DNA of 64,000 nt from Candidatus Babeliales bacterium (lineage in GTDB: Bacteria > Babelota > Babeliae > Babelales > Vermiphilaceae), in NCBI GenBank assembly GCA_963743635.1, contig CAVUQO010000003.1, positions 352,001 to 416,000 of the forward strand, given 5' to 3'. The position numbers were made by a program, and so were the translations under genes. Below are positions 145 to 59,380 of the stretch, in pieces (the first letter of the stretch is position 1; every line of letters begins with the position of its first letter). A model generated the notes under the pieces. The model did not search any database. It saw only the letters and a list, made by a program, of their open reading frames with translations, and was not told the DNA's origin.

Positions 145-489
145 TTACTGTTTATCTGCAGAAGCGCTAGAATGAGCGTTCCAGACTGTCACCGCACAAT
201 ATAAGACTAAGGCGCCAACAACCATGCGATAATTCCACGCATCCCTTGAGGCTTGAAGAGCATCAGCTTCTCGTGTATTTTCTGTGGTCCTAGCGCGATT
301 TTCTGCGCAGATTCTATCTTGTAGTTCCTGCGTCTCAGCGACGAGCGCAGTATCCGTACGTTGCGTCGGTTGCGTTGCATTCCTACGTTGCGTCGGTTGC
401 ATTGCGTGAACTGCTGGGCTGATAATGAGTGTTAGTATTAATATTTTCATTCTGAGTAGTGCCTTAGGCACGTATCGAAGAGTTTTCAT
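145..489 (-). CDS. Exported small protein, 'AM' leader, helical region plus C-terminal TM
   Basis: Leader ...PAVHA|MQ; hydrophobic MVVGALVLYCAVTVW near C-terminus. Confidence 0.75.
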   Translation of the reverse strand: MKTLRYVPKALLRMKILILTLIISPAVHAMQPTQRRNATQPTQRTDTALVAETQELQDRICAENRARTTENTREADALQASRDAWNYRMVVGALVLYCAVTVWNAHSSASADKQ

Positions 490-517
490 AATTTTATTCC
501 TTTAAATATGCAAAGTA

Positions 518-844
518 TTAGAGATTATTATAGGAATACATTGCAGCGGCTACGATTGCACTGCTCCCAAAAAAGAACACAGCCGTAGTCAGCGCGCGTA
601 TGGTCCGTTGTGAGTTTTGATCATTACGTTCAAGAACCGCGAGTCTGGCGTTGATGTGTGTTAATTGATCGTTTAATTTTTTTTCTGCTTGGCGAAGATA
701 GCTTACATTTTGGTAAGTGAGGTCTTCCATTGAGGACATTCTTGTTTCAAGATCACTAATGCGTCCGCTTTCAAGGTCAGGATCCATTGCAGAAATCTGC
801 GTGGCCGCACCAATAAGTGCGAGCAGTAATAATAGTTTTTTCAT
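518..844 (-). CDS. Exported coiled-coil, tail-anchored protein
   Basis: MKKLLLL...QISA|MD; ~55 aa heptad-like stretch then C-terminal hydrophobic segment. Confidence 0.8.
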   Translation of the reverse strand: MKKLLLLLALIGAATQISAMDPDLESGRISDLETRMSSMEDLTYQNVSYLRQAEKKLNDQLTHINARLAVLERNDQNSQRTIRALTTAVFFFGSSAIVAAAMYSYNNL

Positions 845-953
845 AATAATATTCTCTAGTTATTGTTATTTTGAACCATTTGGTCCGTTATAGTTTAATG
901 TTGTTCAGACGACAATTATCAAAGGTTGTATCCATTTCACGGTCAAGCAACAT

Positions 954-1769
954 CTACTTTTGAGCCTGTGCGCATAAAAATTGCGCTATCTCCATTAAGG
1001 ATGGGTGATGCGCAATGGTTAGTGTTGCGTTATTTAATTCATGTGACTCTTTGAGGTCAAAACGTCTATTTTTCGCAGCTTTACCTGCTCCCAGACCATA
1101 AAATCCTGATGGTTGTTCGCGATCGACCTTCATGAATTTCCGCATCCACAACGGCTGCTGACCTATTGCTACCATTGCTGCATCTACTTCTTGTTGACCG
1201 ACGTGAACAGGCGCCATAGTTTGAGCATCAAATGCATACGGCCAATATCCATCCTGTCCATTGCTTGCTGCAAATAATAATTTTGTACCGCGGTTTATCC
1301 AGCATACATATTGAATTGATTCATTACCCACCTCTGCGAGGGTAATATTTCGCCATTGTTTGGACGATTCTTCTTTCAACACGCGCAACACGCCACCGGT
1401 TTCTACCATGGCACATTGCGTAGCATCATTACTAATCGCAAAACTGTCTAGCGGCTTTAACGATAATGTTACCTGCGTAATCGGTGTAAATAGACCTATG
1501 AATCTGAAACGTTCTTGATCCGGCAATATGGTCTCTAGAGCGGATAGTACTGCTGCAGGATTCAATTGATTTGTGTTTTTAAGGGATTGTACTTTAGCTT
1601 GCACTGCCTCATAGAGCAAACGCGGTTCTGCTTGCGCTATAAACATCCCGATACGGGTAGTTATTTCCTGTTGAGCATCGTCCATCGTCATACTGGTGCA
1701 TGCATTGTCCATCGCCATACTGGTGCATGCGATGAATGAACTGAGCGCTATAATAAATATTTTCTTCAT
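954..1769 (-). CDS. Exported hypothetical protein, possible partial beta-propeller blades
   Basis: Leader ...TSMA|MD; blade-like segments SFAISNDATQCAMV and YVCWINRGTKLLFA. Confidence 0.75.
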   Translation of the reverse strand: MKKIFIIALSSFIACTSMAMDNACTSMTMDDAQQEITTRIGMFIAQAEPRLLYEAVQAKVQSLKNTNQLNPAAVLSALETILPDQERFRFIGLFTPITQVTLSLKPLDSFAISNDATQCAMVETGGVLRVLKEESSKQWRNITLAEVGNESIQYVCWINRGTKLLFAASNGQDGYWPYAFDAQTMAPVHVGQQEVDAAMVAIGQQPLWMRKFMKVDREQPSGFYGLGAGKAAKNRRFDLKESHELNNATLTIAHHPSLMEIAQFLCAQAQK

Positions 1770-1782
1770 TATTTTTTATCCT

Positions 1783-2109
1783 TTAGTTACCTGAATTGTT
1801 ATCTGTATTACAACACGTTATGTAAAGGCAGAAAGCACCCGCACATACACATAAGATTTTTGTTGAGGTCTGAAGAAATTCCATAGGGAAGTTAGCGATT
1901 CTATTGGCTTCTTCTGCTCTTCTATCTATTTCTGTATCATCGAACTGTTCATCGAGCCATAGAGTTGTTTTTTTAACAGCTCTTGCTGTTTTTCGTTGTA
2001 TGTGCGCTTCGTATGGTGTCGGGTTTAGTCCTGACTCGTCACCAAATTCTTCCATAGCCTGAGCAATGAACGGACTTATGAGAGCGAGGATGAATAATAT
2101 CTTCTTCAT
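1783..2109 (-). CDS. Exported small protein with Cys-rich C-terminal hydrophobic segment
   Basis: Start reassigned to MKKILFIL (ATG 2109); AQA|ME; ILCVCAGAFCLYITCC. Confidence 0.75.
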   Translation of the reverse strand: MKKILFILALISPFIAQAMEEFGDESGLNPTPYEAHIQRKTARAVKKTTLWLDEQFDDTEIDRRAEEANRIANFPMEFLQTSTKILCVCAGAFCLYITCCNTDNNSGN

Positions 2110-2117
2110 GGCTGACC

Positions 2118-57243: not shown

Positions 57244-57248
57244 TATTT

Positions 57249-57863
57249 TTATTCCAGGGTTCCAAAGTAGCGATCTCCAAAATCCCCAAGTCCCGGCACG
57301 ATGAAATGTTTATCATTGAGCTGCGCATCTTGGCCGGCGACAATGAGCCGTGCTTCGGGATGCATTTTTTTGATATTTTGTATTCCTTCGTTCGCACTTA
57401 CAATGCCCACGAAAAGAATGTGTTTAAGCGGTACTTTCTTGATAATGATATCAAATGCAGCACAAGCAGTGCCACCCGTTGCGATCATAGGGTCAAGAAT
57501 AATAACGCGATGCTCAGCCGATAGCGGCGGCATATGGCTGTAATATTGATGGGGGACTGCAGTTATTTCATCTCGCTGCAAACCAAGAACGCCGACTGAG
57601 GCATCAGGAAAAAATTCAAGAAAAGTGGGTAGCATAGCAAGCCCAGATCTTAAAATCGGCACCAAGGTAATCGGATACGTGATTCGTGTGCCCGTTGTTT
57701 TGGCAAAGGGTGTTTCAACATTATAGGATGTTGTATCAAGATGCGATATTGCTTCGTACGCTAAAAGATGAGTGAGTTGATCGGCTGCTTTGCGAAATGC
57801 GGCTCGTCCGGTATCTTTATCACGGAGTTGTGAAAGGTATATATTTTTAGGATTGTTATTCAT
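57249..57863 (-). CDS. upp: Uracil phosphoribosyltransferase
   Basis: VPILRSGL, LDPMIATGGT, IVPGLGDFGDRYFGT. Confidence 0.96.
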   Translation of the reverse strand: MNNNPKNIYLSQLRDKDTGRAAFRKAADQLTHLLAYEAISHLDTTSYNVETPFAKTTGTRITYPITLVPILRSGLAMLPTFLEFFPDASVGVLGLQRDEITAVPHQYYSHMPPLSAEHRVIILDPMIATGGTACAAFDIIIKKVPLKHILFVGIVSANEGIQNIKKMHPEARLIVAGQDAQLNDKHFIVPGLGDFGDRYFGTLE

Positions 57864-57935
57864 AGTGCCTCGCTTTAGTTTTACTCAAAAGTTATAGCGA
57901 AAAGGCGCGAGGGTCAATGAAAGAGAGAGTAGTTT

Positions 57936-58586
57936 ATGACAGTAGGATATTTTAAAGATCGCGCAGATGCGGGAAGACGGCTGGTGCCTTTGTTGCGGCA
58001 GTATGCGCACGCAAAAAACACGATGGTGGTTGGTTTGCCGCGGGGTGGCGTTGTGCCTGCATATGAAATTGCGCGTGCATTGAAATTGCCGCTTGATATC
58101 GTAGTTTCACGTAAAATTGGTGCGCCGAGTCAACCAGAATTAGCCGTCGGGGCGTTGACCGAGGATGGTATCGTTATATTCAATAATGATATCATGCAGA
58201 CTTTGGGCCTTTCGCCTGCGGATGTTGGCTCCATCATTGAGGCTGAAAAGCAGGAAGCGCAGCGGCGTTTGACGTTGTATCGCGCTGGCATGGGGCCACG
58301 AGATTTTAAAGGCAAGACGGTGATTATCGTGGACGATGGGATTGCAACGGGAGCAACGATGCGCGCAGCGATTGCATCGGTCCGTGCGCAGGGCGCAAAA
58401 AAGATTGTGGTAGCCGTGCCGGTTGCATTGCAGGAAGAGCTTACATCGATTGATGCAGATGAAATCTATTGCCCGCTCAAGGTCGATTACCTTCCGGGTA
58501 TTGGTGCTTTTTATGAATCATTTTCTCAAACCTCAGATCAAGAGGTGATCGACTTGCTGCGTGCTGACAAGCAAGCCAATGTTTAG
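57936..58586 (+). CDS. Phosphoribosyltransferase-family protein
   Basis: FKDRADAG, GLPRGGV, RKIGAP, IIVDDGIATGATM. Confidence 0.9.
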   Translation: MTVGYFKDRADAGRRLVPLLRQYAHAKNTMVVGLPRGGVVPAYEIARALKLPLDIVVSRKIGAPSQPELAVGALTEDGIVIFNNDIMQTLGLSPADVGSIIEAEKQEAQRRLTLYRAGMGPRDFKGKTVIIVDDGIATGATMRAAIASVRAQGAKKIVVAVPVALQEELTSIDADEIYCPLKVDYLPGIGAFYESFSQTSDQEVIDLLRADKQANV

Positions 58587-58608
58587 TCACAGAATAGTTT
58601 AGTAGGAA

Positions 58609-58893
58609 TTATCGAAGATTATTCAGTTTGGAGCAACAGCTCTCAACTGAATATAGAACGCCTGCGCATGGGCAGCAGCAGCAAATTCCTATCGCTTTTG
58701 CGCAGGTGACCATAAAGCCATCTTTTTCTTCATGGGGTAGGATTTTTGTGCGATTCTGAGGATCAAGTCCACTGAATTTGAATGCCCCATTTGTTCCGCG
58801 CTGTCTTACTTGTTGCTTCTCTTTTTCTTCCATCGCCTGCATTGATGAGGCAATCATGATGACGCTGGTGAGGATAAGGATGTTTAATTTCAT
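58609..58893 (-). CDS. Exported small protein, Cys-rich tail
   Basis: SMQA|ME; ICCCCPC...SCC. Confidence 0.75.
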   Translation of the reverse strand: MKLNILILTSVIMIASSMQAMEEKEKQQVRQRGTNGAFKFSGLDPQNRTKILPHEEKDGFMVTCAKAIGICCCCPCAGVLYSVESCCSKLNNLR

Positions 58894-58966
58894 GGATTTC
58901 TTTCGTGAAGAATTAAGGCAAATAGATTCTTTAGTTGCTTGTTGGTGGGATTAGGGTAGGCAACAA

Positions 58967-59380
58967 TTATTCACAGCATTTCGCGCAGGTTATGCATGGG
59001 CAGCATACAATTAGGAGAGCACAGCCTAGTGCGCGGTCTGTTATCTCAAATGCAAGCTGAGCCGTTGCAACTGCGCAGCCAGCAACGCAATAAAGAGGAA
59101 GGGTGCAAAGTTTTCCAGCATGAATACAGGAGTGTCTCGCATCGTCTATTTTTTCTTGAGCTTGCATTTTTGCCATTTGTCGCTCAATCGCCTTCTGCTG
59201 GGCTAGACGGTTCATTGCAGTTTCATCGGGTTTGTCGGTTGGCGTTAGGGCTATGAATGTATTTGGACTATAGTCAGGTGCTGGAGTTTCCATAGTTATC
59301 GGTGTTATTTGTTTGTGTATTGCCTGCATAGATGAGATCATCATGAGGGCGGTGGCGAGGATAAAGGCGTTTAGTTTCAT
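58967..59380 (-). CDS. Exported small protein, Cys-rich tail (leader paralog of 58609..58893)
   Basis: MKLNAFIL..SSMQA|I; VCCPCITCAKCCE. Confidence 0.75.
   Translation of the reverse strand: MKLNAFILATALMMISSMQAIHKQITPITMETPAPDYSPNTFIALTPTDKPDETAMNRLAQQKAIERQMAKMQAQEKIDDARHSCIHAGKLCTLPLYCVAGCAVATAQLAFEITDRALGCALLIVCCPCITCAKCCE

Follow-up and report, generated by a model that had tools for sequence, protein, structure and literature searches.

Can the first residue that a signal peptidase leaves on an exported protein be under selection in its own right? This question is raised by a stretch of 64,000 nucleotides from a Candidatus Babeliales bacterium (contig CAVUQO010000003.1, positions 352,001 to 416,000; hereafter the window), for which it had originally been predicted that about 20 otherwise unrelated proteins carry a short hydrophobic leader whose cleavage site (marked here by ↓) is followed by methionine, mostly in the context Met-[Asp/Glu/Asn/Gln]. 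The answer reached below is that the observation reflects a selected form of the Sec leader junction that is peculiar to this lineage and borne by a host-directed secretome, neither an artefact nor a mis-called start, and it is well supported that this junction marks a large and fast-evolving exported set, to which secreted GNAT acetyltransferases belong as well as a P-loop ATPase and small proteins whose C-terminal tails are hydrophobic or Cys-rich. The reason for which the Met is kept is a separate matter, on which several readings have to be weighed.

All 20 junctions of the original prediction are present at the genes named there (Table 1), the residue pair following the predicted cut is M-[D/E/N/Q] in 13 of them, and a scan of all open reading frames (ORFs) of at least 40 amino acids in the window produced no further real xA↓M case. 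The description of the bearers as otherwise unrelated stands in part: they represent about 14 unrelated families, but GNAT acetyltransferases account for seven of the 20. When the mature parts of the 20 were compared all against all by blastp, links appeared only among the GNATs (four pairs), and counted by family D/E/N/Q occupies position +2 in 10 of about 14. Six of the GNAT bearers lie within a tandem array of nine related ORFs (9535-15279) and one is found at 50104 (ORFs are named here by their first window position); 9535, 10118, 11292, 13092, 14635 and 50104 pass the Pfam cut-off of at least one GNAT model, and 10620 falls just under it (24.0 vs 27), yet is 36% identical to 11292. The remaining bearers are a double P-loop/AAA protein (18570), an fn3/beta-propeller protein of 1361 residues (43008) and orphans, many of them small and located in a tandem island at 145-4344. 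For the orphan 40561, an ESM Atlas search gave no usable match.

By every sequence criterion tried, the leaders qualify as type I signal peptides, in agreement with their initial description as real Sec-type leaders. They are mostly 17-23 residues long and combine a basic start (typically MKK), a core rich in Leu and Ile and a c-region ending in [aliphatic]-[H/Q/S/N]-Ala. Lys or Arg precedes the core in 18 of 20 (mostly as MKK), being absent in 40561 and 50104, and in the leaders listed by the predictor the best eight-residue Kyte-Doolittle mean of the core is at least 2.0 with no charged residue; the core of ORF 2118-2384, which was dropped by the ORF-overlap filter, was judged by eye. Ala precedes the cut in 19 of the 20 leaders and Gly in the other; at -3 only 43008, with Asn, departs from the accepted small or aliphatic residues, and Pro is absent from -3 to +1. 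None of the 20 has the Cys of a lipobox at its A↓M junction (954 may have one further upstream, FIA↓C), none of the 20 n-regions contains the RR of a twin-arginine (Tat) motif, and no RxL of the PEXEL type precedes the cut in the 20. A type IV prepilin leader was considered and rejected, the hydrophobic stretch preceding the cut and polar or acidic residues following it. Pfam SVM_signal gave no match among 36 proteins scanned at E ≤ 0.01, and NCBIfam gave nothing above cut-off for 14 N-terminal pieces of 40 amino acids. Three sites are doubtful: 43008 (TNA↓AMA), 954 (the possible lipobox) and 14635 (FG↓MF).

The abundance of such junctions was compared with controls using a statistic that needs no cleavage call, namely the presence of [AGS]M at most 13 residues past the core in ORFs having a basic start and a hydrophobic eight-residue core. 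Of the 71 ORFs called in the window 40 are leader-like, and 22 of these carry it, vs 27 of 291 in 77 non-Babeliales control loci (L004-L080, 1384 ORFs called), which corresponds to Fisher p = 9e-11. The three nearest Babeliales loci contribute three of 15 leader-like ORFs in L001 (counts covering 21,776 of its 161,795 bases), none of four in L002 and none of seven in L003, i.e. three of 26 when pooled; the Met cases of L001 are INA↓MQ in a pentapeptide-repeat protein, DG↓MN and YG↓MD. When a crude -3/-1 scorer, which served as a control and not as a predictor, is left to choose the site, Met occupies +1 in 9 of 291 control leaders (about 3%), vs about half of the window leaders with Met(+1), in a control set that is itself crude and includes membrane proteins, for which Leu, Ile and Gly are common at the scorer's '+1'. 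Met makes up 2.9% and D+E+N+Q 18.6% of window residues, against which Met at one position in 14 of about 26 families gives binomial p = 2e-15, and D/E/N/Q at +2 in 10 of 14 families gives p = 2e-5. These counts show that Met after the leader is rare outside the window lineage. At least 12 other leaders of the window are without Met, having V, N, D, N, A/Y, G, A, G, N, Q, I and E at the likely +1, and four window lipoproteins have a lipobox (6381, 12469, 48781 and 49343).

Whether the internal Met might be the true translation start was judged from ribosome-binding signals. Shine-Dalgarno-like 4-mers (AGGA, GGAG, GAGG, GGGA and AAGG, scored 4-20 nt upstream) precede 14 of 20 leader ATGs vs 2 of 20 Met(+1) codons, the latter being at the level of internal in-frame ATGs of the window (41 of 391). 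Because of these counts, the canonical succession of n-region, hydrophobic core and c-region, and the recurrence of the leaders in homologues of other assemblies, Met(+1) is not the start, and by the sequence signals translation is best placed at the upstream leader ATG. In ORF 145-489 an alternative start exists at 450, and AAGGA is found upstream of the start at 489.

The evidence that carries most weight comes from the GNAT family beyond the window. The query (A2) was an alignment of ten window GNATs, trimmed to the mature parts so that it contained neither leader nor Met, and its profile was searched against 1.84 billion cluster representatives (clusters at 50% identity), giving 11,801 matches at E ≤ 1e-3 and 160 at E ≤ 1e-10. 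Taking as family members those of the best 150 matches in which the profile match begins at position 12 or earlier and the protein does not exceed 270 amino acids, 75 full-length members were obtained: 49 with an [AG]↓M junction (47 without the window's own four), 19 with another leader (17), two with a lipobox (2) and five that are leaderless or truncated (5). The logo of the 49 Met-type members reads L-[A/T]-S-A-S-[L/M/I]-[H/Q]-A↓M-[D/E]-[D/N], with leaders mostly of 17-20 residues, Ala (46) or Gly (3) before the Met, Ala at -5 in 28 and at -7 in 20, and D/E/N/Q at +2 in 41. Given cleavage at A↓M, 13 of the 20 mature proteins of the window and 41 of the 49 in the family would thus belong to the NatB substrate class Met-[D/E/N/Q]; small residues are rare at +2 (3 of 20 and 4 of 49), and hydrophobic ones even more so (1 of 20 in the window, 1 of 49 in the family). 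Counted to the first residue aligned with the profile, the distance of the Met varies from 1 to 38 and is 1-2 in 24 of 49; therefore the Met moves with the end of the leader and not with the domain.

A FastTree tree built from the profile-aligned GNAT domain only contains a supported clade of 41 members with a total branch length of 41.5 substitutions per site, made up of 36 Met-type proteins, three with HA↓I or HA↓V and two leaderless calls nested inside; over the whole tree 10 changes between Met and non-Met are needed. Within the clade Met(+1) is kept in 37 of 41 and is the seventh most conserved of 180 columns, level with the glycines of the GNAT motif, -1 is Ala in 97% and -4 is Ser in 90%, while -2, +2 and +3 vary. 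The replacements at +1 are Ile or Val (P0048, P0050 and P0065), and in the window ORF 58967-59380, neighbour of 58609, has a homologous leader ending in MQA↓I (ATA replacing ATG). Such retention over this amount of divergence amounts to strong purifying selection, so that the Met-[D/E/N/Q] junction, presumed functional at the outset, is indeed functional and not a matter of chance; the Met is held about as strongly as the -1 Ala and is part of the leader/cleavage junction, not of the domain behind it. This family became visible through the exhaustive profile search only: a whole-protein word search with GNAT 11292 returned two proteins, and residues 1-40 of the same protein found only themselves (11 candidates) in a set of 5.8 billion proteins.

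At the nucleotide level four GNAT paralogues, the proteins of which are only 23-36% identical, share a near-identical segment of 32 nt (0-1 mismatch to consensus) covering the leader end and ATGGA, i.e. the Met codon plus two bases; the segment was found in these four GNAT paralogues only. This suggests leader-specific gene conversion or leader swapping among the four. Homogenization within a genome cannot explain the conservation across representatives, unless these come from very few source genomes. A general DNA motif behind H-A-M (CATGCNATG) has 12 sites in place of 5.1 expected, a number reached by 1 of 100 shuffles, and was rejected because four of the 12 sites are those of the GNAT paralogues and other H-A-M leaders use other codons. 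One GNAT subgroup shows a second conserved junction, ...[L/V][W/V]S-N-P-[N/G/Q]-D-[L/I], in place of A↓M; its carriers are window ORF 11939-12481 (minus strand) and the representatives P0034, P0042, P0046, P0051, P0057, P0094 and P0128.

Table 1. Leaders followed by Met and CaaX-like C-termini in the window. Positions are those of the window; for leaders the range includes the Met codon.
Feature	ORF	Junction or motif	Positions	Strand	Remarks
leader + Met(+1), codon 400-402	145-489	...ISPAVHA↓MQPT	400..489	-	orphan, no Pfam; C-terminal hydrophobic tail
leader + Met(+1)	518-844	MKKLLLLLALIGAATQISA↓MDPD (SA↓MD)	785..844	-	orphan; C-terminal hydrophobic tail
leader + Met(+1)	954-1769	...FIACTSMA↓MDNA	1710..1769	-	ambiguous: possible lipobox FIA↓C
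leader + Met(+1)	1783-2109	MKKILFILALISPFIAQA↓MEEF (QA↓ME)	2053..2109	-	Cys-rich hydrophobic tail
leader + Met(+1)	2118-2384	...LSPNLSA↓MHMN	2325..2384	-	sequence
leader + Met(+1)	2551-2823	...MGSMAHA↓MNQP	2767..2823	-	sequence
leader + Met(+1)	3506-3973	MKKLVLMLSIFCISMHA↓MNEI (HA↓MN)	3920..3973	-	sequence
leader + Met(+1)	4018-4344	MKKLLLILCLTTATINA↓MQQA (NA↓MQ)	4291..4344	-	sequence
leader + Met(+1), GNAT	9535-10113	MKKLLITLLLTSASMHA↓MEDV (HA↓ME)	10060..10113	-	32-nt segment 10058-10089
leader + Met(+1), GNAT	10118-10606	...LLTSASMHA↓MEDV	10538..10606	-	32-nt segment 10536-10567
leader + Met(+1), GNAT	10620-11279	...FLASASLHA↓MDQD	11217..11279	-	32-nt segment 11215-11246
leader + Met(+1), GNAT	11292-11942	MKKLLLTLLLASASLHA↓MEHK (HA↓ME)	11889..11942	-	32-nt segment 11887-11918
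leader + Met(+1), GNAT	13092-13658	...QTIAIQA↓MSPN	13599..13658	-	Met 22 residues ahead of first GNAT strand
leader + Met(+1), GNAT	14635-15279	...GYVPAFG↓MFQS	15208..15279	-	atypical: Gly at -1, Phe at +2
leader + Met(+1), double P-loop/AAA	18570-20201	...LPVCSAQA↓MNST	20139..20201	-	C-terminal CaaX-like CIIS
leader + Met(+1)	29334-30089	...AGTITLA↓MKHN	30024..30089	-	basic residues after Met; signal anchor possible
leader + Met(+1)	40561-41358	MWYIVVVMCLWSISCSA↓MHTP (SA↓MH)	40561..40614	+	no basic n-region; C-terminal CaaX-like CTIQ
leader + Met, fn3/beta-propeller	43008-47093	...EIQTNAA↓MANI	47013..47093	-	cut TNA↓AMA equally plausible
leader + Met(+1), GNAT	50104-50772	...SLCMAVHA↓MSED	50104..50175	+	no basic n-region
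leader + Met(+1)	58609-58893	...IASSMQA↓MEEK	58831..58893	-	Cys-rich tail
CaaX-like box	18570-20201	CIIS	18570-18584	-	C-terminus
CaaX-like box	40561-41358	CTIQ	41344-41358	+	C-terminus

Several bearers have peculiarities of their own. In ORF 954-1769 a tandem duplication of nine residues runs across the junction (ACTSMAMDN / ACTSMTMDD, 1680-1735), ORF 14635-15279 has an (SINQ)x3 repeat just after the Met (about 15150-15200), and ORF 43008-47093 consists of an N-terminal lactonase-like beta-propeller and about ten fn3-type repeats of about 95 residues, several of which are nearly identical among themselves. The small proteins of 88-137 residues encoded at 145-2823 and 58609-59380 have a leader, a charged or coiled middle part and, at the C-terminus, a hydrophobic segment in which Cys is often very abundant (58609 has 8 and 58967 has 9 among the final 45 residues). 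To judge from this layout, they look like single-pass membrane proteins, and their Cys clusters could be palmitoylation sites. Ordinary non-Met leaders are present on ORF 17404-18408 (plus strand), which encodes an FtsH-like AAA domain without the protease part, and on the multi-ankyrin and HD-domain proteins 21808-23106 and 36413-37540 (both plus strand), all three being of cytosol type. Among the window leader proteins, orthologues in the syntenic L001-L003 were limited to the non-Met 21195, matching an L001 ORF.

The double P-loop/AAA protein gives a second view on the junction. One homologue of 18570 (47% identical) has a quite different leader, which still ends in ...THS↓MN; another (51% identical, on a contig of 241,948 bases) is a leaderless call starting three residues before the aligned Met. 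CaaX motifs are signals for prenylation in eukaryotes, and bacteria are not known to have the transferases, so such a box is meaningful in a eukaryotic cytosol only. CaaX-like C-termini are present in only 2 of 71 window ORFs, both of Met type, and two homologues of 18570 keep the box (P0152, CIIL; P0153, CTIV). A Sec leader and a eukaryotic prenylation box are not usually found in the same protein. According to PMC2916131, the Legionella F-box effector AnkB is described as prenylated by host machinery at its CaaX motif. The boxes found here point to at least some Met-type proteins reaching the host cytosol, their prenylation being putative, and a cytosolic site of action also fits the need of GNATs and P-loop ATPases for acetyl-CoA and ATP.

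What the Met is kept for can be answered only by degrees. The account that we favour, in which a selected Sec junction originated from a relic initiator and its Met is retained for the sake of the mature N-terminus, comes close to being the probable one when taken as a whole, and stays somewhat short of that. Regarding origin, the Met is probably the old initiator of a once-cytosolic protein that acquired a leader, because it sits where leaderless GNATs begin: in the A2 match list the latter start 1-2 residues before the profile start, as does the Met in 24 of 49, and P0010 and P0152, which were called without a leader, start at it or close by. Positive charges just after the leader hinder Sec export, and in eukaryotes Met-hydrophobic starts and most other N-terminal residues act as degrons. 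A cut exactly before the Met would create a mature Met-[D/E/N/Q] start, which, being non-basic, would be compatible with Sec export, would have its Met left on by methionine aminopeptidase, residue 2 not being small, and in eukaryotic cytosol would be neither a destabilizing residue nor a Met-hydrophobic degron. According to PMC3104970, Met is normally left in place by methionine aminopeptidases when a larger residue follows, and NatB acts on acidic or hydrophilic second residues. Retention for this mature N-terminus is a tentative proposal, plausible rather than probable. One of its preconditions gains independent support because CaaX boxes stand on Met-type proteins. Of the two functions proposed at the outset, a host-like, stable N-terminus or a signal for a second secretion step, either may apply, or neither. 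The more far-reaching idea that Ala↓Met-[Asp/Glu/Asn/Gln] is an address label of the host-directed secretome, serving either a second export step or a host-like, non-degron N-terminus, we regard as possible and on balance doubtful.

A number of observations weigh against the favoured account. Cleavage at A↓M is predicted from sequence for all 20, and the crude scorer places its top site there in just 10 of 20. Effector-like proteins of the window have leaders without Met, namely the ankyrin protein 21808 (VRA↓GE), the AAA protein 17404 (TQA↓NL) and the HD protein 36413 (CRG↓EV), and so have two window GNAT paralogues. Asn and Asp at the N-terminus are destabilizing in eukaryotes, and GNAT subfamilies exist with conserved non-Met junctions, LWS↓NP[ND]D in about eight representatives and xxA↓D in three, which, if cut as written, would expose exactly these residues. 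NatB acetylation is normally co-translational, and a delivered protein may never be acetylated. Though strong in the window lineage, the trait is faint or missing in L001-L003, the closest relatives sampled. The GNAT representatives come without taxonomy and may stem from few genomes, and concerted evolution adds to similarity within a genome because of the shared 32-nt segment. Finally, the side that is removed is conserved too in the GNAT family, so a role on the host side alone falls short, the -4 Ser of the discarded leader being conserved at 90%.

This last point is the strength of an alternative that places recognition on the bacterial side: the sequence ...[aliphatic]-[H/Q]-A↓M-[D/E/N/Q] may be read by a signal peptidase preferring a hydrophobic P1' or by a second-step sorter (e.g. 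type II secretion or vesicle loading) that parts released proteins from periplasmic residents. In the GNATs conservation extends to either side of the cut, Met(+1) being kept in 90% and D/E/N/Q found at +2 in 41 of 49, and since the removed side is conserved and the replacements of Met (P0048, P0050, P0065 and ORF 58967) are hydrophobic, the -4 Ser and the Ile/Val substitutions are better explained in this way than by the mature N-terminus. Leader-bearing ankyrin, AAA and HD proteins of the same window are without the motif, however, -4 is not conserved across the other families of the window, and signal peptidase I as a rule accepts many residues at P1'; the window itself contains neither a peptidase gene nor a secretion gene to examine. 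The conserved non-Met junctions of some GNAT subfamilies weigh against this reading as well. Recognition on the bacterial side, whether by peptidase or by sorter, is on balance doubtful when judged by itself, and is almost as likely as retention for the mature N-terminus.

That the Met is a functionless leftover, i.e. the start codon of cytosolic proteins that gained a leader and nothing more, borrows its support from the same facts that suggest the relic origin, namely many GNAT Mets lying 1-2 residues ahead of the profile start, where leaderless GNATs begin, the starts of P0010 and P0152, and the cytosol-type domains (GNAT, P-loop ATPase) of many bearers. A neutral relic is nevertheless improbable: the ATG is kept in 37 of 41 over 41.5 substitutions per site while -2, +2 and +3 vary, the Met is fixed to the leader end though the linker to the domain reaches 38 residues, -1 Ala and Met are directly adjacent in about 14 unrelated families, and the leaderless members are nested in Met-type clades, being therefore derived or truncated gene calls.

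Hardly more credible is cleavage elsewhere, at an upstream site of the ASA↓S type, or an uncleaved anchor, with A-M being then part of a conserved N-terminal peptide. The crude scorer favours an upstream site in about half of the leaders, ORF 29334 has basic residues after the Met, and 40561 and 50104 are without a basic n-region. Signal peptides of 13-16 residues, which the upstream sites preferred for most of these leaders would leave, are shorter than usual in bacteria, however, and the restriction to Ala or Gly sits right before the Met (49 of 49) and not at -5 (Ala in 28) or -7 (Ala in 20); the cut at A↓M is better backed by conservation because this restriction is the P1 rule of signal peptidase I.

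Dual initiation, in which the internal ATG is a second start giving a leaderless cytosolic isoform, has slim prospects. Selection does act on an ATG, and the leaderless entries P0007, P0010 and P0152 begin at or near the Met, but Shine-Dalgarno-like sequences ahead of Met(+1) codons are at background, neither the invariant -1 Ala nor D/E/N/Q at +2 is explained, and among the replacements (Ile, Ile, Val) only Val is possibly an alternative start, GTG. As for chance, composition or a gene-calling artefact, to which seven paralogues among the 20 bearers and frameshifted housekeeping genes suggestive of imperfect sequence might be turned, it can be dismissed in view of the Fisher and binomial tests and of the recurrence of the junction in database homologues found by a profile that did not contain it.

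The organism and the genomic surroundings are in line with a host-dependent life. The identity of MnmG to loci from metagenome-assembled genomes is 67, 60 and 57% for L001, L002 and L003, respectively (the first two titled Candidatus Babeliales, the third 'bacterium'), and does not exceed 49% for all others, and the gene order corC-rpoD-dnaG-lgt-mnmG-mraY is common to the window, L001 and L002; because of these identities and this order the window is assigned to a Babeliales (Dependentiae/TM6) intracellular bacterium of the amoeba-parasite type. Its G+C is about 0.42, and it encodes the housekeeping genes tkt, an hflK-like gene, an ABC-F gene, corC, rpoD, dnaG, lgt, mnmG, mraY, tgt, murB, trhO, alr, upp, pheT, lspA, pgpA and comF, as well as a nucleoside triphosphate/diphosphate (NTP/NDP) exchange transporter and a leader-bearing ankyrin protein. 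Of the housekeeping genes three are interrupted (15385-17291, 23269-24913 and 24323-26744): the ABC-F gene is represented by two ORFs, rpoD by about five ORF pieces, and corC begins in the reading frame of the last rpoD piece before shifting out of it. All three are intact in L001 and L002. No obvious long homopolymer coincides with the breaks, which reflect either errors in the sequence or genuine decay. L002 has two tandem rpoD-like genes (7555-9117 and 9264-11633, plus strand, 520 and 789 amino acids). Cultured Dependentiae are obligate parasites of protists. The published genomes, according to PMC6561590 and PMC4378268, encode many proteins with signal peptides, which are taken as secreted into the host: Chromulinavorax has a signal peptide on 44% of its coding sequences (PMC6561590) and Babela on 79 of 126 ankyrin proteins, type II secretion being the sole secretion system detected in the latter (PMC4378268).

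Set beside known systems, the leaders share with ordinary Sec/signal peptidase I leaders the basic n-region, hydrophobic core, small -1, small or aliphatic -3, lack of Pro at +1, and acidic or neutral residues early in the mature part; they differ by Met(+1) in about half of the cases, by being unusually short (17-20 residues), and by a junction that in the GNATs is conserved as strongly as the catalytic motifs. Phytoplasma SAP/SVM and Liberibacter Sec-delivered effectors, from intracellular bacteria that are wall-less or poor in secretion systems, offer the example of host-acting proteins from tandem islands that leave by plain Sec export and not by type III or IV injection, with conserved leaders before highly variable mature parts. 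The SAP/SVM effectors have no sequence relation to the proteins described here, in which the conserved element is the residue after the cut, and the window organism is two-membraned, so a further export step is needed. Information in residues exposed by leader removal is likewise known from the lipoprotein +2 rule, the Bacteroidetes lipoprotein export signal and PEXEL, which in Plasmodium leaves x-E/Q/D, an acidic or amide preference right after the cut comparable to ours by analogy only; the window junctions, in contrast, have no Cys, lipid or RxL, and a role in transport is an analogy as well. Legionella AnkB (PMC2916131) has the same C-terminal Cys-aliphatic-aliphatic-X that is conserved in homologues of 18570, but the window proteins pair the putative box with a Sec leader and not with a type IV secretion signal. 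The predicted mature N-termini fit the class of NatB substrates as outlined in PMC3104970. They differ in provenance, since NatB normally takes nascent chains at the ribosome and the window N-termini would arise by bacterial proteolysis. Met after the leader has no mention in the portions of PMC6561590 and PMC4378268 at hand, and a literature search of main texts, few of them from subscription journals, found no published account, for either Dependentiae or Sec-delivered effectors, of a junction with Met(+1) or Met-[DENQ].

In Dependentiae, a widespread phylum, a selected junction motif would let the host-directed secretome of the lineage be read from sequence and would give a handle on processing, second-step export and effector stability; it would also be one of few examples of information residing in the residue directly behind a signal peptidase I cut. 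The presence of a Sec leader and a CaaX box on one protein argues that Sec exports of a two-membrane bacterium can reach the eukaryotic cytosol. If the idea of an address label were true, the junction would serve either in a second step out of the bacterium, as the equivalent there of PEXEL or the lipoprotein +2 rule, or to provide, in the amoebal cytosol, a non-degron N-terminus that may be of the NatB type, and it would belong to a lineage of Dependentiae without an injection-type secretion system.

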